This document shows, in pieces, positions 2,799 through 38,067 of a DNA stretch of 64,000 bases. Under the pieces are notes generated by a model. That model was not told the origin of the DNA, did not search any database, and was given only the letters and a program-made list of their open reading frames with translations. A program made the translations under genes and the position numbers. The stretch lies in NCBI RefSeq assembly GCF_058153355.1, contig NZ_CM177019.1; one strand, 5' to 3'. Each line of letters begins with the position of its first letter. Position 1 is the first letter of the stretch.

Positions 2799-4082
2799 TT
2801 ACTCAATCCGATCTTTGACAATAAAGAAGTAACACAGCGCCCCGGTGAACGTCACACAGGCCGCGATAACCAGCGCCAGATTAAACGAGTGCGTGGTATC
2901 CACTACCCAACCGGTTACGATCGGAGCAAAGGAAGCAAAAACAAAACTGCCAAAGTTTTGAATCCCGGCGATGGAAGCCACTTTTGTTTCTGACACCATC
3001 ACCTGCACCAGTCCCCATGCAGATGTTCCCGCGAAATGCACGCAGAACAGCGCCATTGAGATAAACGCTACAGCCTGGGCTGGCGAGGAGGATTGCACGA
3101 CCAGCAACGTGCCTAATGCCGACATCATCAAACCGCAGACAATAGCCGTTTTACGCGTCTTCGCCAGGTCGTAGCCTTTTTTCGCCAGCCGATCGACAAC
3201 AATACCGTTAACCCACATCCCGACCGCCGCCGCGAGGAAAGGAATCGCCGCCACCCAACCGGTTTTCGCCAGACTGAAGCCTTGCTCGGCTTGTAAATAA
3301 CCGGGTAACCACGCGATGTAGAGCCAACCGGTATAATTGACGCCAGAGAAACCTAAAATCATCCCCCAGGTTGTCCGATGCTTAAACAGCGCCAGCCACT
3401 CGCTAAATTGTAATTGTGGACGCGGTTTAACCGGCGCGGAGAGATAGGTCCGTTCTTCGTCGGTCAGGACAAACTGCGCCCGGTTGCGATACCACGCGTA
3501 CCAACAGATCCCAACCAGAATCCCCGCCACGCCGATGATGACGAACATTGCCCGCCAGCCCCATGCCAGCTGCATCAATACAAGAGCAGGAGGCGCAATA
3601 GCCTGACCGATAACGGTAGATGAGTTAAAAATCCCCAGCGCCGTGCCGCGTTCTTTTTGCGCATACCAGTCGGTGATCGACTTTACTCCCGCAGGCATAA
3701 ATGGCGCTTCGCCAATACCCAGACCGATACGCATTAAAATAAAGTGGCTAAAAGAATTAACCATTCCTGTTAATGCCTGCATTAATGACCAGAATATTAA
3801 GCCTGCGCCTAAAACTATTCGTGGGCCAAAGCGGTCTAGCAAAATACCGGAAGGGAGTTGTGAAAAACCATAAGACAGAGAAAATGCAGAAAGCAAAACG
3901 CCAAATTCTGTCGCCGATAATCCTAACTCGCCACGAATCGCTTCGCCTGCCACGCTCAATGACGAACGGTCGAGGAAATTAACGATCCCCGCCATAAATA
4001 ATAAAACCAGCGTTACTGTCTGAATACGACGAATCCGTTGCGGTTTATTACCCGCAACACTGGTTGACACATCAACGTCCAT
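2799..4082 (-). CDS. MFS transporter, anion:cation symporter (ACS) family, probable sugar-acid (aldonate/hexuronate-type) permease
   Basis: 427-aa ORF with multiple hydrophobic helices and the NFLDR-type motif typical of ExuT/GudP/DgoT-like ACS transporters; co-oriented with the downstream ManD-like gene; substrate not inferable. Confidence 0.8.
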   Translation of the reverse strand: MDVDVSTSVAGNKPQRIRRIQTVTLVLLFMAGIVNFLDRSSLSVAGEAIRGELGLSATEFGVLLSAFSLSYGFSQLPSGILLDRFGPRIVLGAGLIFWSLMQALTGMVNSFSHFILMRIGLGIGEAPFMPAGVKSITDWYAQKERGTALGIFNSSTVIGQAIAPPALVLMQLAWGWRAMFVIIGVAGILVGICWYAWYRNRAQFVLTDEERTYLSAPVKPRPQLQFSEWLALFKHRTTWGMILGFSGVNYTGWLYIAWLPGYLQAEQGFSLAKTGWVAAIPFLAAAVGMWVNGIVVDRLAKKGYDLAKTRKTAIVCGLMMSALGTLLVVQSSSPAQAVAFISMALFCVHFAGTSAWGLVQVMVSETKVASIAGIQNFGSFVFASFAPIVTGWVVDTTHSFNLALVIAACVTFTGALCYFFIVKDRIE

Positions 4083-31146: not shown

Positions 31147-31414
31147 AAGCTGAAGGGCGTCAACCGAAAAATGACCAATGATGGTGAGGAAAAATCAGGG
31201 AAGATGAAAAAAATTCAGGATAAAGGCCAAAGTTCCTCGTACCTGAACATGTGGAATATACCTCATTTAAGATGATATTTATTTGTTTAATTATTTTTTC
31301 TATTAACCGGTGCAACGAGTGTTAAAGCGTGTAATTTTAGGATTATATCAATAGTCACGGTTATACAAACAGTGATAATTTATGAAATAATTTTATTTAC
31401 CAGAGGAATAGCGC

Positions 31415-32389
31415 ATGTATCTTAATACTCAAGTTCAATATAATAAGTTAAATAAAGATGAAAAAAAGATCCTGTTGTTACAAAAGCTAGCCCATTTAAC
31501 TGATTTTACTTTTGACAGAATAGAGACATTTTCAGCATTTGGACAATCTACTGAAACAGGTGTTTTTAAATATAAAGATGGCAATGAATTTGTTGTTGTC
31601 CCCGGGGATACAGTAATATTAGGGTGGGATGCCAGTCTCAATAATATGGATGGTCCGACAAAACAAGAATTTGAAGAGATGTTGGAACCAGAAGGTTTAG
31701 ATTTGAATAATTATCTCACCGACTCTTGCACACCTGTCAGGAAGGTTACAATTTCCCCGATGCTGGTTGAAAGAAACGTTCACGCCGAACCAAGTTGGAA
31801 GGAAGTATCTCTTACGGACCCCCGCATCACAGAGAACAGCATGCTGCAAAAATTTCTGTCTGATTATATGGAAAAAATTAATCCTGGAGTTCACGAATTA
31901 AACGCAAGATTGAAATTACAATATATAGATGGGGATTTATTTGCACAAATATATGAATCAATTAGCTATGATGAGTTACTTCAAAATATCCAAAGCAATA
32001 GTTTTGATCTTCCGAGCGAAGATGAATGGGAATATTTATGTGGCGGTGGTTCCAGGACACTCTGGCGCTGGGGGAATAATTTCGACTATCAAATGAAAAT
32101 CCCATTTATTACTTCAGAAGAACCAACAACCTGGGATATAGAATGGCCTAATCAGTTTGGGTTGCAGATTGCATTTGATCCCTATCTTCAGGAAATTATT
32201 AATGATAAAGATATTCTTCTGAAAGGTGGCGATGGTGGGTGCAATCTCTGCGGAGGTGCTAATGTTGTATTAGGATTCTTGCCTGTGGCAACTTATTACA
32301 AAGGATATAATAAACATACGGACGAATTAGAATATATGGATGACATTGGAGACAATTATACTTCTTATCGCAGAATAATTCGTTTATGA
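31415..32389 (+). CDS. hypothetical protein, FGE-sulfatase (SUMF1/EgtB/PvdO-like) domain suspected
   Basis: 324-aa ORF, very AT-rich by eye; motifs FVVVPGDTVILGWDAS, SEDEWEYLCGGGSRTLWRWGNNF and NQFGLQI resemble the MVxIPGGxFxMG, AEWEYAxRGG...PWG and NxxGLxDM motifs of formylglycine-generating-enzyme-like domains; no signal peptide. Confidence 0.5.
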   Translation: MYLNTQVQYNKLNKDEKKILLLQKLAHLTDFTFDRIETFSAFGQSTETGVFKYKDGNEFVVVPGDTVILGWDASLNNMDGPTKQEFEEMLEPEGLDLNNYLTDSCTPVRKVTISPMLVERNVHAEPSWKEVSLTDPRITENSMLQKFLSDYMEKINPGVHELNARLKLQYIDGDLFAQIYESISYDELLQNIQSNSFDLPSEDEWEYLCGGGSRTLWRWGNNFDYQMKIPFITSEEPTTWDIEWPNQFGLQIAFDPYLQEIINDKDILLKGGDGGCNLCGGANVVLGFLPVATYYKGYNKHTDELEYMDDIGDNYTSYRRIIRL

Positions 32390-32440
32390 GTAAAAATTAT
32401 ATTTCAGGACAAGAAGTTATGCTCGGGTCAAGCTAATGAA

Positions 32441-33952
32441 TTGCTTAACGCAAGGAATAAAAACGTATTGATGAACACTGGGAATTTCGAGTCGATACAA
32501 ATCATGATCGACGCGCAAGAGTGGCGTAGCCTGCCGCTGCATCTGCGTCTGTATCACGCTTTTCGCCAATTGGTGATTTCCGGCGCATTGTCTGATGGCG
32601 CAAAACTGCCTTCCGCTCGCGCACTGGCCCAGCAACTTGGTCTTTCCAGAGATACCATCGAAAATGCCTATTCCCAGCTCCACCGCGACGGTTTTATGGC
32701 TCGCAGGCAGGGGGCCGGGAGTTTCGCCAGCCGCCAGGGGATACCGCATATTCAGGGCCAGCATGCGCAACCACCCTCGCCCGGACAAGTACCGGCTTTA
32801 AGCGCTCGCTGGCAGCCAATTGCCGATCGCGCAGTCTCTTTCGATGCCCGCCAGATGCAGACCTTTACGCTTGGCCTGCCGGAAACGCGAAACTTCCCGC
32901 TAAACATTTGGCAGAACTTTTCCCGCCAGATCCAACGTGAGCAGGCACATACGCTGATGTTAAATAGCGATCCGCAGGGCGAGCCACAGCTGCGCCAGCA
33001 AATTGCGCATTACCTTAATTTTGAACGCGGCGCGAAGGTAGATGCCGGGCAGATTGTGATTGTCAGCGGCGCACGGCAGGCGTTCTGGCTGTGCGGGCAA
33101 CTGCTGGCAGAGGCCGGACAGTCGGTGGCGATGGAAAATCCGGGCTATCCCGGCGCGCGTCAGGCGTTTTCTGCCGCACAGCTTAATCTTCTTCCCGTTG
33201 AAGTGGATGACGCCGGGATCCGGGTGGATAAACTGCCGCCCGCGCCGCTGGTTTACGTCACGCCCTCGCACCAGTTTCCTTCCGGTCATTTGCTCACGCT
33301 GGCGCGGCGTCATGCCCTGATTGCCTGGGCGCAGGCGCACAATGCGTGGATTATCGAAGACGACTACGACAGCGAATTTCACTACACCAGCGCGCCCGTC
33401 GCCTGTCTGCAAGGGTTAGACTGCGAGCAACGCACCCTGTATGTCGGCACTTTCAGCAAAACGCTCTATCCCGGCCTGCGCATCGGTTATCTGGTGGTGC
33501 CGACGTCGCTGGCTGCGCACTTTGCCGCCGCGCGTAATTTGCTTGATGGCGCAACGCCTGCGTTATCCCAACTAACGCTGGCGCGATTTATCGAGTCCGG
33601 TCATTTTGCCGCCCATATTCGCAACATGCGTAGTATGTATGCGGTGCGACAGGGGTGCCTGGCAGAGGCTATTCATCAGCACTTAAGTGAATGGGTCACG
33701 CCAGTGGTGACATCCGGTGGATTGCAAATGCCCTGCTGGCTGCATGGAGGTATTGATGAGCAACAGACGCTGAATGCCGCGCGCCGCGCCGGGTTAAACA
33801 TCGCCGGAATGCGCCAGTTCTGGCTGACGCACCCCGCGCACGCGGGCTGGCTGCTGGGATTCGCCGCCTTTACCCCCTACGAGATTGAACAGGGCGTCAA
33901 GCGTCTGCGGGCTGCATTATGCACTGAAAACGTGCGCCCAGCCGGGTCATAA
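32441..33952 (+). CDS. MocR/GabR-type regulator (GntR HTH fused to a PLP aminotransferase-like domain)
   Basis: 503-aa ORF; N-terminal GntR-like HTH (LPSARALAQQLGLSRDTIENAYSQLHRDGFMARRQGAGSF) followed by a roughly 350-aa aminotransferase class I/II-like region; true start may be an internal Met; GC-rich by eye. Confidence 0.8.
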   Translation: MLNARNKNVLMNTGNFESIQIMIDAQEWRSLPLHLRLYHAFRQLVISGALSDGAKLPSARALAQQLGLSRDTIENAYSQLHRDGFMARRQGAGSFASRQGIPHIQGQHAQPPSPGQVPALSARWQPIADRAVSFDARQMQTFTLGLPETRNFPLNIWQNFSRQIQREQAHTLMLNSDPQGEPQLRQQIAHYLNFERGAKVDAGQIVIVSGARQAFWLCGQLLAEAGQSVAMENPGYPGARQAFSAAQLNLLPVEVDDAGIRVDKLPPAPLVYVTPSHQFPSGHLLTLARRHALIAWAQAHNAWIIEDDYDSEFHYTSAPVACLQGLDCEQRTLYVGTFSKTLYPGLRIGYLVVPTSLAAHFAAARNLLDGATPALSQLTLARFIESGHFAAHIRNMRSMYAVRQGCLAEAIHQHLSEWVTPVVTSGGLQMPCWLHGGIDEQQTLNAARRAGLNIAGMRQFWLTHPAHAGWLLGFAAFTPYEIEQGVKRLRAALCTENVRPAGS

Positions 33953-33956
33953 TCTC

Positions 33957-35003
33957 CTACGGGATGGTGTTGCAGGCAGCGGCAACCTGTTCCAGCGTCT
34001 GGCCTGCGCCAATAAATTCCACCTTATCGCCCGCTGTCGGCGTGACGGAGCTGGCATCGACCATAAAGCTGTCCATACAAACCCGCCCCAATACCGGTAA
34101 CCGCACGCCGCGCCAGCATACGCCCGCCGGAGGACGCATATTTCGCGGAACGCCATCCGCGTAACCCGCGGATATCGTAGCGATACGCAGCGGACGCGTG
34201 GCGGTAATCGTGCTGCCGTAGCCAACTGGCGTTCCCGCCGGGACATCCTGCACGCGCAGAATAGTTAGCGTCAGCGTAAAAGCCGGTTTTAGCGGCCTGG
34301 AAAACCACGGCTGGGCGACGCCAAACAGCGCAATCCCCGGACGGCAGAGATCTTCCCGCCAACCTGGTTGCAAAAACATTCCGCAGGAGTTCGCCAGCGA
34401 AAATCGGCTGCTGGGGAAAACCGTTTTTGCCTGCTGGAATAGCGCGTGTTGCGCCATATTTAACGCATGATCCGGCCTGTCGGCGTTCGCCAGATGGCTG
34501 ATGATATAGTCCGGCGCAGGCCAGTTACGCTCACGAAAAATCGCCGCCAGACGCATCAGTTGTTGCGGCATCATGCCCAGCCGCGACATACCAGAATCGA
34601 GCTGAATCATCACCGCGCTCCGTTGCTGGCGCGTTTCCAGTAACGTAAGCCACGCCATCACCTGGTCTACGGAATTGAGCAATGGCGTGATCTGCTGCGC
34701 GTAACAATACGCCATCGCCTCCGGCATAACCCCATTAAGCACTACCACCATCGCATCAGTGGGCAGGATTTTACGCAACGCCACGCCTTCAGAAAGCTGT
34801 GCGACAAAAAAGATCCGGCAGTTCGCCGCATACAGGGCGGGCGCAATCGCCTCCGCCCCCAGACCATAGGCATTGGCTTTCAACACCGCGCCACATTGCG
34901 CAGGGGCAGCATGGCGGGCCAGCATACGATAATTGTCGACGATGGCGGCGCGATTAACGCACATAACACCGCACGCCGCCTGGATTTCAGTAGAAGTCAT
35001 CAT
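33957..35003 (-). CDS. alanine racemase-family PLP enzyme (amino-acid racemase, specificity unknown)
   Basis: 348-aa ORF; VLKANAYGLG (PLP-lysine motif, cf. VVKANAYGHG in Alr) and SAGYADGVPR (cf. MGYGDGYPR catalytic Tyr region). Confidence 0.8.
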   Translation of the reverse strand: MMTSTEIQAACGVMCVNRAAIVDNYRMLARHAAPAQCGAVLKANAYGLGAEAIAPALYAANCRIFFVAQLSEGVALRKILPTDAMVVVLNGVMPEAMAYCYAQQITPLLNSVDQVMAWLTLLETRQQRSAVMIQLDSGMSRLGMMPQQLMRLAAIFRERNWPAPDYIISHLANADRPDHALNMAQHALFQQAKTVFPSSRFSLANSCGMFLQPGWREDLCRPGIALFGVAQPWFSRPLKPAFTLTLTILRVQDVPAGTPVGYGSTITATRPLRIATISAGYADGVPRNMRPPAGVCWRGVRLPVLGRVCMDSFMVDASSVTPTAGDKVEFIGAGQTLEQVAAACNTIP

Positions 35004-36238
35004 TAATAAGGCAACGGGTAGCGGTTGGTTAGTTGTATTACTTTTTGCTCAATATCGGCGCAAATGTCTGCAATATCTGATGAATTAATGGCGAAAATAA
35101 TTTCACTTATCCAGTCGGCAATCAGCGCAAAGTCATCCGCCTTCATCCCACGCGTGGTGCAGGCCGCGCTGCCAATACGAACGCCGGAGGTAATCAACGG
35201 CGGCTGCGGATCGCCCGGCAGGGTGTTTTTATTGACCGTGATCCCCGCCAGTTCGAGAAAGTACTCCACCTGTGCGCCGGTTAACCCCTGCGGGCGCAGG
35301 TCGATAATCCCCAGATGGCAGTCGGTGCCGTCCGTTAACAGCGTCAGGCCGCGCAGCGCCAGTTGCTGGCACATCGCCTGCGCATTGTCGATAACCTGCC
35401 CGGCATAACGTTTAAATTCCGGTTGTAATGCCTCGCCAAGCGCCACCGCTTTCGCTGCGATAACGTGCATCAACGGCCCGCCCTGCAAACCGGGAAAAAT
35501 GGCACTGTCGATTTTTTTCGCAAGCCTGGCGTCGTTGGTGAGGATCATGCCGCCGCGCGGCCCGCGCAATGTTTTATGCGTGGTGGTGGTGACCACATCA
35601 GCATACGCCAGCGGCGAAGGGAAACAGCCGCCCGCCACCAGCCCGGCAAAGTGCGCCATATCCACCAGCAAAATGGCGTCAACGGCATCGGCAATGCGGC
35701 GAAAACGGGCAAAATCATAGTGACGTGGATAAGCCGATCCTCCGGCAATAATCAACCGCGGGCGCTCACGCAGCGCGATCATCTCGACCTGATCCATATC
35801 AATCAAACCACTGTGCGCATCGACGCCATAGTGAAAAGCGTTAAACCATTTGCCGGATTGATTGACCGGCGAACCGTGCGTGAGATGCCCGCCGCATTGC
35901 AGGCTCATGCCAAGAATTTTGTCGCCGGGTTTCAGCAACGCCAGATGGACCGCCTGATTCGCCTGGCTGCCGGAGTGAGGCTGCACATTGACGTAACGCG
36001 CGCCAAAGAGCTGCTGCGCGCGGGTTATCGCCAGCATCTCAACCTCATCAATAAACTTACAGCCGCCGTAATAGCGATGCTGGTAATAACCTTCGGCGTA
36101 TTTATTGGTTAACACCGACCCCTGCGCCGCGAGAACGGCGGGGCTTACGAAATTCTCCGAGGCAATCAGTTCCAGCGACTGCTGCTGGCGCTGTTGCTCC
36201 TGGTTAATCAATGCAAAAAGTGGATCGTTATTTATCAT
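35003..36238 (-). CDS. serine hydroxymethyltransferase-family PLP enzyme (GlyA paralog)
   Basis: ORF 35003..36304; from [30 protein letters not shown] collinear with E. coli GlyA including [16 protein letters not shown] (PLP lysine); start at the internal Met preceded by gggggaag is more plausible, coordinate +/- a few bases. Confidence 0.85.
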
Positions 36239-36513
36239 GCGCTTCCCCCGCAAATTCATCATGCGATGATTTTCGCAGGGAAAACCTCGTCCGCACCCTG
36301 CCACTTTTTTGGGCAGGTGCAGACCACCTGTATGTCGTATTACTTAAAAGAAGAGAACATCGCTGACAATACCGGTATTAACTCCGAAATGAAGAGGGAA
36401 GAAGGCTCCGGCCATCTCCATGTGCGATTCTGGCTAGTAAAACATCATATTCCAGCTGCTCTTATCCGCCTACGTTATTGCATATACGGATAAGGCAGCC
36501 TCAATACGTACTT

Positions 36514-38067
36514 TTACTTGATATCTTTCACGCGCATACCGTTGATCTGTTCATCCGTGATGGTGTTACCCGCTTTAAAGTAATCAACCACCGCGTGATA
36601 AACGTAATAACCGCCCGTCGTATTGCGCGCTTTACCCTCGGTAAACGCGGTAAAACCATCTCCACCATCAGCAAGGAAACTCTGAGTGGCAATGTGGTAA
36701 ACCGTCGCATCTTCAATCGGTTTGCCATTCAAAGTCAGTGAGATAACCCGCTGACCAACCGGCTTGCTGCTGTCGTACTTCATTTCCAGGCCTTTCGATA
36801 CCTGTAAAACGCCATTACTTAAACTTGCGCCGTGTTCCATCAAACTGCGTAATTGTTTACCCGTGAGTTCCATCGTCACCAGTTCGTTGGGGAACGGGAA
36901 GGTACTGATGACGCCACCCATCGTAATTGCACCCGCCGGGATCTCATTGCGGATACCGCCAGAGTTGGTTAACGCCAACTGGGTATTTTTACCCGCCGCT
37001 GCCAGTAAAGCATCTGCCGCCAGGTTCCCGAGAGAAGCCGATTCACCATAGGCACGTTTTAGTTCAACCGGCGATTGCGCCACCGTTTGCTGCACGACTT
37101 CATCCAGCTTTTTATTCCAACTATCAATCACCTGTTTTGTTTGCGGATCGGGCTTCCACTCGTCGGCGTAAAGGGTTTTAAGCTCGAAGTTTTTCACCGT
37201 AAAAGTGTGCGGCTTCTCTTTGTAGTCCAGTACCAGTTTACCCACATCAATCCCACCGCTGTCAGTGGAGAGGATGAGCGTATTGCCGACTTTAATCGGT
37301 TCCGGCGTACCCACATGTGCATGCCCGGTGATCAAAATATCCAGCCCTTTCACCTGACTTGCCGTCTGAATATCTTTATCCAGTGCGCGGCGCACATCTG
37401 TGCCCCCCATACTGGACTGGCGGGCCGGAACACCTTCGTGAATCAGCGCAACGGTCAAATCAACCTTGCCTTTGAGTTCATCGATATAACGTTGTAGCCA
37501 TTTAATTTCATCACGCGCCTCAATACCCACTCGCGTTGCCGCAGATACCGTATCATTAAAGGCAAATACACCGTGCAAACCAATCACGCCAATTTTCACG
37601 CCGTCTTTTTCAATGATGGTATAGGGCTTATCCCAGAATGATTTACTGCTGTTCTGATAAAAAACATTACCCTGCACAATCGGGAATTTTGCCTGACTCA
37701 ACTGTAATAACGTATTGTCCCAGCCGTGATCAAATTCATGATTACCTATAGTGGCCGCATCGAACGGCATGGTATTCATAATATCGATAATCGCCTTGCC
37801 TTTAGTCAGGCTGCTGATATACGGCCCGGTAAAATAGTCACCCGCATCAAAAAACCAGGTCGCTTTGTTTTTAGCTTTTTCTTGTTTAACAAGCGTAGTG
37901 ATATTTGCCCAGCCGCCAATATCTCGTTTACCGTCAGCAATCCACGGCACTTTATAAGGCTCTACATGTGCATGGAGGTCGTTGGTATAAATGATGGTGA
38001 CATCTTTGGCGCAAGCCCAAAACGGCAGTGTTAATGCGATACCCGCAGCAAGCATTTTAATTTTCAT
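36514..38067 (-). CDS. secreted 5'-nucleotidase / metallophosphoesterase-family protein (UshA-like), paralog 1
   Basis: ORF 36514..38073; signal peptide [20 protein letters not shown]; calcineurin-like motifs NDLHAH, GDYFTG, GNHEFD, ITGHAHV and a C-terminal 5'-nucleotidase-type region; start trimmed to the ATG preceded by a purine-rich SD. Confidence 0.85.

Follow-up and report, generated by a model that had tools for sequence, protein, structure and literature searches.

The inverted repeat upstream of the SHMT paralog (HP1 in the following) probably lies on an operator of the MocR/PdxR type and its promoter, and is not primarily an RNA element; this assignment is drawn from comparison of DNA sequences. 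It is located in the window (the whole stretch of 64,000 nt analyzed here), in which a 5'-nucleotidase gene on the minus strand ends at 36514 and the SHMT paralog starts approximately 275 nt further on, on the same strand. Together with an alanine racemase gene and a convergent gene for a candidate cognate regulator, the paralog forms an SHMT-alr-regulator module positioned between metF and metL (Table 1). The first-pass annotation had described HP1 as a stem-loop in the presumed 5' leader RNA. Comparative evidence does not favor this, placing a MocR-type operator on HP1 and a candidate -10 element 22 nt downstream. Because operator and promoter would underlie HP1, the operon transcript probably starts downstream of it. 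Among the roles offered by the annotation (a regulatory leader structure, an RNase processing site or a protein-binding palindrome), protein binding came closest, but what is conserved are two boxes in direct repeat and not a palindrome.

Table 1. Features of the SHMT-alr-regulator locus (positions are those of the window)
Feature	Position	Strand	Remarks
MocR/PdxR-like regulator gene, candidate cognate	32471..33952	+	GntR-wHTH and aminotransferase-like domain; convergent with SHMT-alr operon
Alanine racemase gene (alr), operon gene 2	33957..35003	-	premature stop in window copy
SHMT paralog CDS from SD-led ATG	35003..36238	-	411 aa; alternative start 36262/36259
CCACTTTTT, perfect inverted copy of AAAAAGTGG (box 2 region, 36301-36309)	36215..36223	-	SHMT codons 6-8
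HP2, 19-bp hairpin, 3' strand = SD	36241..36285	-	only in transcripts starting upstream of ~36285
Shine-Dalgarno-like GGGGGAAG	36242..36249	-	3 nt before ATG 36238 (6 nt from GGGGG core)
ATGATG, in frame with SHMT	36257..36262	-	invariant in 8/8 variants; first A ~36262 = predicted transcription start
Candidate extended -10 TGcGAAAAT (TGtCAAAAT in L005)	36269..36277	-	HP2 5' arm; hexamer exactly 22 nt after box 2
HP1, inverted repeat	36289..36324	-	5' strand 36324-36311; A6 'loop' 36310-36305; 3' strand 36304-36289
A-tract and box 2 (AAAAAAGTGGCAGG)	36297..36310	-	HP1 'loop' and 3' arm; box 2 starts 23 bp after box 1
Box 1 GTGGTCTGC, candidate MocR/PdxR-like half-site	36319..36327	-	first 9 nt of block; overlaps HP1 basal 5' strand

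The existence of the inverted repeat was confirmed. On the plus strand it consists of GCACCCTGCC (36293-36302), AC, TTTTTT (36305-36310) and GGGCAGGTGC (36311-36320), and it is imperfect, with a 1-nt offset or bulge. Read on the minus strand, the core arms GCACCUGCCC (36320-36311) and GGCAGGGUGC (36302-36293) pair with a one-base offset around the A6 loop, and a basal extension (GUCU/GGAC) brings the two strands to GUCUGCACCUGCCC and GUGGCAGGGUGCGGAC. When HP1 alone (43 nt) was folded as RNA, its energy was -23.5 kcal/mol, compared to -12.2 +/- 2.8 kcal/mol for shuffled sequences (z -4.0; 1 of 200 shuffles as good); folded as plus-strand DNA it reached -9.1 kcal/mol (z -2.9). Judged by both z-scores, HP1 is above chance for its own sequence. 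Downstream of the stem end at 36289 come GAGG and then UUUU (only UUU in Salmonella), without a U-run directly after the stem (GGACGAGGUUUU), and a terminator scan of positions 35900-36900 returned no terminators. The view of the first-pass annotation that HP1 is not a classical terminator therefore stands.

HP1 is part of a block of approximately 100 nt, which contains a second hairpin (HP2) and was recovered in eight distinct variants, 90% identical, from Escherichia, Salmonella and a third, unplaced lineage (L005). These eight variants represent about three lineages. Alignment similarity has a sharp upstream limit at GTGGTCTGC (36327) and reaches as far as the start codon, and all DNA further upstream is unalignable, so the block, judged by this contrast with its ~90% identity, is under constraint. 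A scan of metagenomes with the pattern GTGGTCTGC-N-AAAAGTGGCNGGGT added one E. coli-type and one Salmonella variant, the remaining hits being chance matches. Three of the chance matches fell in RelE/HigB-like toxin genes (RWSA..GKSGGVR); an origin of the block as a toxin-gene relic was rejected, as the homology was confined to the forced pattern. A plasmid search with the L005 leader yielded generic glyA matches only.

Within HP1, the invariant parts are the two boxes, and the variable part is the spacer, the length of which is constant. Box 1 is invariant in all eight variants and has no other exact match in the window; AAAAAGTGGC, covering the A-tract and box 2 region, is likewise invariant across variants and unique in the window. 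Box 2 reads GTGGCAGG at 36304-36297 and takes the form GTGGCRGG across the variants. The distance between the starts of the two boxes is the same in 8/8 variants, and the spacer sequence varies at 5-6 of its 11 positions. The boxes have only the GTGG core in common. HP1 itself occurs in some form in all eight variants (8/8), but a strong apical stem was found only in the window lineage, L021 and L005 (-21.8, -21.7 and -15.8 kcal/mol, respectively). When the variable 9 nt of the spacer were replaced, the native spacers of these three were equaled by 0.5-0.6% of random and 3.8-9.3% of permuted sequences. The apical stem of E. coli 2013C is stable as well (-18.7 kcal/mol), and its spacer is marginally better than random (3.1% of random and 6.4% of permuted spacers as good). 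In GF4-3 (21%) and Salmonella (6-31%), the native spacer is no better than random. Conservation of the structure in orthologues thus holds for some form of HP1, but not for the apical stem, which is at or near the random-spacer level in GF4-3 and Salmonella.

The regulator encoded in the module matches the NCBIfam model PLP_TF_PdxR with 426.7 bits (cut-off 320), and its best relatives of solved structure in the PDB are B. clausii PdxR (7pq9), in first place, and GabR (4n0b). The Pfam domains GntR and Aminotran_1_2 are present in the regulators of all orthologous loci. Among homologues of the regulator, identity drops from 82% to ~50%, and those at ~50% adjoin BenE-family transporters instead of SHMT; a search for more distant SHMT-alr-MocR modules suitable for footprinting found none beyond 82% regulator identity. 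The recognition helix of the wHTH domain, LSRDT[IV]ENAY, is common to the window regulator and the BenE-linked clade.

The box 1 motif recurs in the promoters of this clade. The 8-mer GTGGTCTG is present exactly once per locus in L038, L039, L042 and L043 (Achromobacter, Janthinobacterium, Pseudomonas and Ewingella, with ~50%-identical regulators), each time in an intergenic region that borders the regulator gene or its BenE neighbor, compared to a chance expectation of 0.13-0.35 per locus; Cupriavidus (L044) has GCGGTCTG, with one mismatch to the 8-mer. Moreover, the register is shared. In the BenE promoters of Achromobacter, Janthinobacterium, Ewingella and Cupriavidus, box 1 is followed by 15 nt ending A/T-rich, a GTGG-like box (GTGG, TTGG, GTGT and CTGG), 22 nt and a hexamer (TAGACT, TAAGAT, TATAAA and TAAGCT). 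The corresponding elements of the SHMT block are GTGGTCTG, 15 nt with A5-6 at their end, GTGGCRGG, 22 nt and GAAAAT (CAAAAT in L005), with TGn before the hexamer. The BenE operators show boxes and a spacer style as in the SHMT block, without an equivalent hairpin. An extra box of the related operators, 11-12 bp from GTGGTCTG, is absent from the SHMT block. In three BenE promoters (L039, 6505-6525; L044, 4068-4092; L043, ~1035-1057), box 2 is also the left arm of a short palindrome, such as TTGGCCTGCC-TGG-GCAGGCCA, giving the layout of two direct plus one inverted box that is common in MocR operators; the Janthinobacterium promoter also contains CCTGCC/GGCAGG hexamers as in the HP1 arms of the window, at a different spacing.

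According to the proposed mechanism, the regulator encoded at 32471-33952 would bind box 1 (36327-36319) and box 2 (36304-36297), whose spacing of about two helical turns is taken up by a pyrimidine-rich stretch and an A-tract, and it may either activate or repress. Box 2 would adjoin the -35 position of a promoter that is weak and of the activator type, with its extended -10 at a distance of 22 bp from the box. From the geometry of this -10, transcription is predicted to start at ~36262, approximately 27 nt downstream of the HP1 base and inside apical HP2. Each part of HP1 would then have a counterpart in the operator: the basal 5' strand would be the tail of box 1, the apical 5' arm the spacer, the 'loop' the A-tract, and the 3' arm box 2 together with the -35 position. 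The inverted repeat would arise because the pyrimidine-rich spacer pairs, largely via G-U, with the G-rich box 2 and -35 region; this pairing is especially good in the window lineage. All five promoter types have a -10-like hexamer at a fixed 22 nt downstream of box 2, although the hexamers are weak. A sigma-70 consensus scan of the window, Salmonella and L005 contexts detected no promoter, and a crude PWM promoter scan produced no candidate above 8 bits. No second operator site was found within the window, and there is no box upstream of the regulator gene in the window or in L005. The inverted copy of the box 2 region inside the SHMT gene is matched at 9/9 positions in the window, 10/10 in L021, 13/16 in L005 and, by inspection, 8/9 in Salmonella (G-U in RNA); its role may be that of a third operator box in inverted orientation or that of a partner in long-range RNA pairing.

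Several properties of known PdxR-type MocR operators (the pdxR-pdxST operators of B. clausii and C. glutamicum, and the predicted BenE/GlyA regulons) are shared by the SHMT block. In both cases, a regulator of the GntR-wHTH/aminotransferase-fold type is encoded in the locus, boxes with a GTGG core are repeated directly at an interval of about two helical turns, which includes an A/T tract, and the boxes lie just upstream of, or over, a weak promoter, which is a predicted one here (PMC5320631, PMC4494728, PMC10450172). In the literature, the direct repeats of MocR operators are spaced by two or three turns, and an inverted box and DNA-bending A/T tracts often accompany them (PMC5320631, PMC4494728, PMC10450172). 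The target is an SHMT-family gene, as predicted for the PdxR group, and the predicted PdxR regulons of proteobacteria include both GlyA-family SHMT and BenE (PMC5320631). The PdxR box of C. glutamicum is AAAGTGGW(-/T)CTA (PMC4494728), and its counterpart in L005 is AAAGTGGTCTG. Unlike in PdxR-type operators, the regulator gene of the SHMT module lies convergently at the 3' end of the operon instead of diverging from the target promoter, the second box is degenerate, and a clear third box in inverted orientation is missing within ~50 bp, the sole inverted copy being 86 bp away in the coding region.

HP2, which is absent from the first-pass annotation, has -25.7 kcal/mol in the window. It is formed by UUUUCCCUGCGAA pairing with UUUGCGGGGGAAGC, which is the Shine-Dalgarno (SD) sequence of ATG 36238. 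HP2 is present in all lineages with energies of -14 to -26 kcal/mol (z -2.1 to -4.8) and is weakest in L005; it is also a DNA palindrome, with antisense z-scores down to -4.4. The G-rich core of the SD-like sequence is kept in all variants and its edges differ (GAGGGAAG in L021, GGGGGAAC in Salmonella and GGGGAAAT in L005). In predicted folds of transcripts carrying the whole block, the SD is paired, with a probability of being unpaired of 0.001-0.18, and in transcripts from ~36262 (-3 to -6 kcal/mol) it is free. Folding HP1 and HP2 together gave a z-score of -5.9 in the window. The sense strand folds into HP1 plus HP2 in every variant, with z-scores of -2.0 to -6.9 that are always better than those of the antisense strand.

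Covariation across orthologues, which had been proposed as a check of the stem-loop, gave a mixed outcome. There are two compensatory (double-sided) changes, both in HP2 and both in L005, but the signal is marginal, as 33 of 500 shuffles were as good (8 variants, ~3 lineages). In total, 96.6% of pair cells were paired, and L005 has several further wobble-compatible changes. G-U pairs make up 40% of the pair cells of HP1. Among the nine consensus pairs of HP1 there are seven variable sites, all transitions, and 6/7 keep pairing, which is not significant because about two-thirds would be expected by chance (an estimate from arm composition). Support at the RNA level is thus weak. A search of 35500-37000 with Rfam cmscan at E<=10 revealed nothing at the site and two chance matches elsewhere. 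An erm-like switch, in which 2:3 pairing (GCAGGG:CCCUGC) would free the SD, was considered and rejected: HP2 folds and keeps the SD paired even when segment 1 is blocked. A conserved leader peptide was also rejected, since the sole small upstream ORF (25 aa, ending at ~36345) is window-specific and disrupted in 2013C.

With regard to translation, the first-pass annotation had doubted the far-upstream start of the open reading frame, GTG 36304, and had placed it inside the loop. This codon indeed lies in the loop region, at the junction between the loop and the 3' arm of HP1. It is very unlikely as a start, since its position falls within conserved box 2, before the predicted -10. Homologues and gene callers use 36238 (411-413 aa, chosen by several gene callers) or 36259/36262 (419-420 aa, by NCBI). 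For ATG 36238, favored in the annotation, the evidence is divided. A well-spaced, conserved SD and several gene callers speak for it, but the 24 nt upstream show a third-position bias, with 7/9 minimal substitutions between the candidate starts on third codon positions (p 0.008), and contain the invariant ATGATG. No such bias was seen in the 40 nt upstream of this interval. A leaderless or dual SHMT start is possible. Both candidate start codons are surrounded by a 12-nt direct repeat, CGCATGAT(G/A)AAT, at 36230-36241 and 36254-36265, exactly 24 nt apart; its conservation extends over Escherichia and Salmonella, and a small duplication may have left it behind.

Three other explanations of the block have to be weighed against the operator and promoter. 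HP2 strength, the compensatory changes and SD sequestration are not required by the operator model, and the folding bias toward the sense strand and the 40% G-U content of HP1 fit an RNA-level constraint better than a DNA one. One explanation, to which we give a minor chance, accommodates them by dual use: operator and promoter would coexist with hairpins selected at the RNA level against read-through transcription. Read-through transcripts from the 5'-nucleotidase gene would carry both arms of HP2, so that the SD would be locked, and HP1 would contribute to pausing or stability. The internal promoter would initiate within the apical loop of HP2, and its transcripts, being without the 5' arm of HP2, would be translated. 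With read-through silent and internal transcripts translated, expression would depend strictly on the regulator. This is consistent with the persistence of HP2 in all lineages at the energies given above, with the contrast in SD accessibility between long transcripts and that from ~36262, with the compensatory and wobble-compatible changes in L005, and with the position of the predicted transcription start between the arms of HP2. Moreover, no terminator was detected from the 5'-nucleotidase stop (36514) to the block, and a precedent exists in the two stem-loops of IS200 (summarized in PMC3196728). Several observations weigh against it, namely the marginal covariation, the fact that HP2 is also a DNA palindrome, and a transcription start that is predicted only. 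In L005, where HP2 is weakest, the module lies ~350 nt past a terminator-like site, and less read-through would be expected. The terminator scan of L005 found three terminator-like sites, at least ~350 nt upstream of the block, two of which are the two strands of one palindrome; they were the only such sites in the contexts scanned. In its full form, for which we consider the odds to be low, the SHMT-alr cassette would have its promoter nested in a hairpin, its own transcripts would start at the A of AUGAUG and be translated leaderless and/or from the freed SD, and read-through would be silent.

A true 5' leader RNA appears more doubtful still. It would be transcribed from a promoter upstream of 36327, with a 5' UTR of ~90 nt starting with HP1 as a 5' stabilizing stem-loop or a target of a protein or sRNA, and HP2 would close the SD until a factor opens it. 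The sense-strand z-scores in all variants, better than those of the antisense strand, and the 96.6% of pair cells paired are compatible with such a leader, and the best weak promoters, TTGTCA-16-TTAAGT in the window and CTGCCT-17-TACATT in L005, would give starts 5-8 nt upstream of the block. However, no conserved promoter is found upstream of the block, where the DNA is unalignable between lineages, and the TTGTCA of the window sits in a 41-nt stretch absent from E. coli 2013C. Furthermore, HP2 is so stable that the SD remains closed even with segment 1 blocked, a mechanism that would open it is not apparent, Rfam gave no match at E<=10, and the invariant parts of HP1 are boxes common to unrelated BenE promoters without such a hairpin. 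It is highly improbable that HP1 belongs to the 3' end of the 5'-nucleotidase transcript and serves there as a terminator, as an RNase-protective hairpin or as a processing site. The stable hairpin does lie 190 nt past the stop codon of this co-directional gene, with no other terminator detected, but there is no U-tract at the stem (UUUU follows 4 nt after it, only UUU in Salmonella). In addition, the block travels with the SHMT module and not with the 5'-nucleotidase gene (1843 E. coli genomes carry the nucleotidase, and homology ends ~15 nt past its stop in 2017-02-2CC), and L005 has the block without a 5'-nucleotidase gene. The MocR/PdxR-type operator with its promoter is the reading that we retain as the most probable.

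The two hairpins may also be compared with systems in which a ribosome-binding site is occluded. IS10 is reportedly protected from impinging transcription by fold-back inhibition, as Davis, Simons and Kleckner are said to have described in 1985. IS200 has two stem-loops, one of which stops impinging transcripts and the other occludes the RBS (summarized in PMC3196728). Like these elements, the SHMT block has two stem-loops at the upstream border of a horizontally moving unit, the second of which is predicted to occlude the RBS in long transcripts, and its predicted start lies between the arms, so only transcripts from outside would fold. Unlike them, the module does not belong to the insertion sequences, HP1 lacks a U-run and hence does not qualify as a terminator, and the transcription start is predicted rather than mapped. 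With SD-sequestering leaders (FourU/ROSE thermometers, riboswitch platforms and erm-type attenuators), the block shares a U/C-rich strand (UUUUCCC) that pairs with the SD and a four-segment layout with 1:2, 2:3 and 3:4 pairing potential. It differs from the thermometers in that the stability of HP2 (-19 to -26 kcal/mol in most lineages) is much too high, and from such leaders in general in that it comes without a conserved leader peptide or Rfam match, and blocking segment 1 leaves the SD paired.

The module has a scattered distribution. It was found in 3 of 5426 complete E. coli genomes and in Escherichia sp. MOD1-EC7003, the sole species-representative genome with the block motif; a scan of species representatives with the pattern AAAATCNTCGCATGATGAA gave no match outside this strain. 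Many Salmonella enterica, Typhi included, carry the module, with SHMT 92-93% identical. The L005 copy is 86% identical and lies in another chromosomal context, beside ParA/DnaB-type genes and without the 5'-nucleotidase gene. In the window (~31400-36500), the module and a gene for a 324-aa hypothetical protein form an insertion between metF and the 5'-nucleotidase gene. The latter is present in 1843 of the 5426 E. coli genomes and the module in only 3; in 2017-02-2CC, the one module-less strain checked, homology ends ~15 nt past the 5'-nucleotidase stop codon. Just past this stop codon in the window, at 36461-36494, is a REP-like inverted repeat (CTTATCCG ... CGGATAAG), and the intergenic DNA from there to the conserved block varies by strain, including a 41-nt indel relative to E. 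coli 2013C-4282. The border of the module in L005 looks like that of an integrative element: ParA/DnaB-like genes adjoin it, and positions 3495-3560, ~350 nt upstream of the module, contain a fragment resembling a tRNA 3' end (GGTTCGAGTCCGGCC...) and a clean terminator. ARAGORN found no intact tRNA at this border.

The module seems to be decaying in Escherichia, with different genes hit in different strains, given the alr stop in the window and the internal stops of SHMT in three E. coli genomes. The alanine racemase gene of the window (33957-35003, minus strand) encodes 348 aa with a premature stop (NTIP*EIMTRLG), and a 99%-related metagenome copy (L032) reads NTIPYEIMTRLG and encodes 368 aa. 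The 'internal stop' flag falls on SHMT in the three complete E. coli genomes that carry the module. The reaction of alpha-methylserine hydroxymethyltransferase yields D-alanine, and this enzyme is mentioned together with D-alanine in two reviews. As pure speculation from the pairing with alanine racemase in one operon, the 'SHMT' may use a substrate that yields D-alanine. A metagenome protein (P0020), 73% identical to the window SHMT, has a near-identical C-terminal half (two differences) and an unrelated-looking N-terminal half; it is probably an assembly chimera and unsuitable as an orthologue.

The present analysis provides a testable operator, GTGGTCTGC-N14-GTGGCRGG, together with a candidate promoter, for an uncharacterized PdxR-like regulator. 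It also ties the regulator of the SHMT-alr module, found in Salmonella (including Typhi) and rarely in Escherichia, to a BenE-linked MocR clade of beta- and gamma-proteobacteria. If the dual use of the block were true, the horizontally acquired SHMT-alanine racemase module would stay tightly regulated wherever it lands, and it would show that a promoter nested in an RBS-occluding hairpin is not limited to insertion sequences. More generally, a strong predicted hairpin near a gene start can be a by-product of operator composition, that is, of a pyrimidine-rich spacer, an A-tract and a G-rich box.
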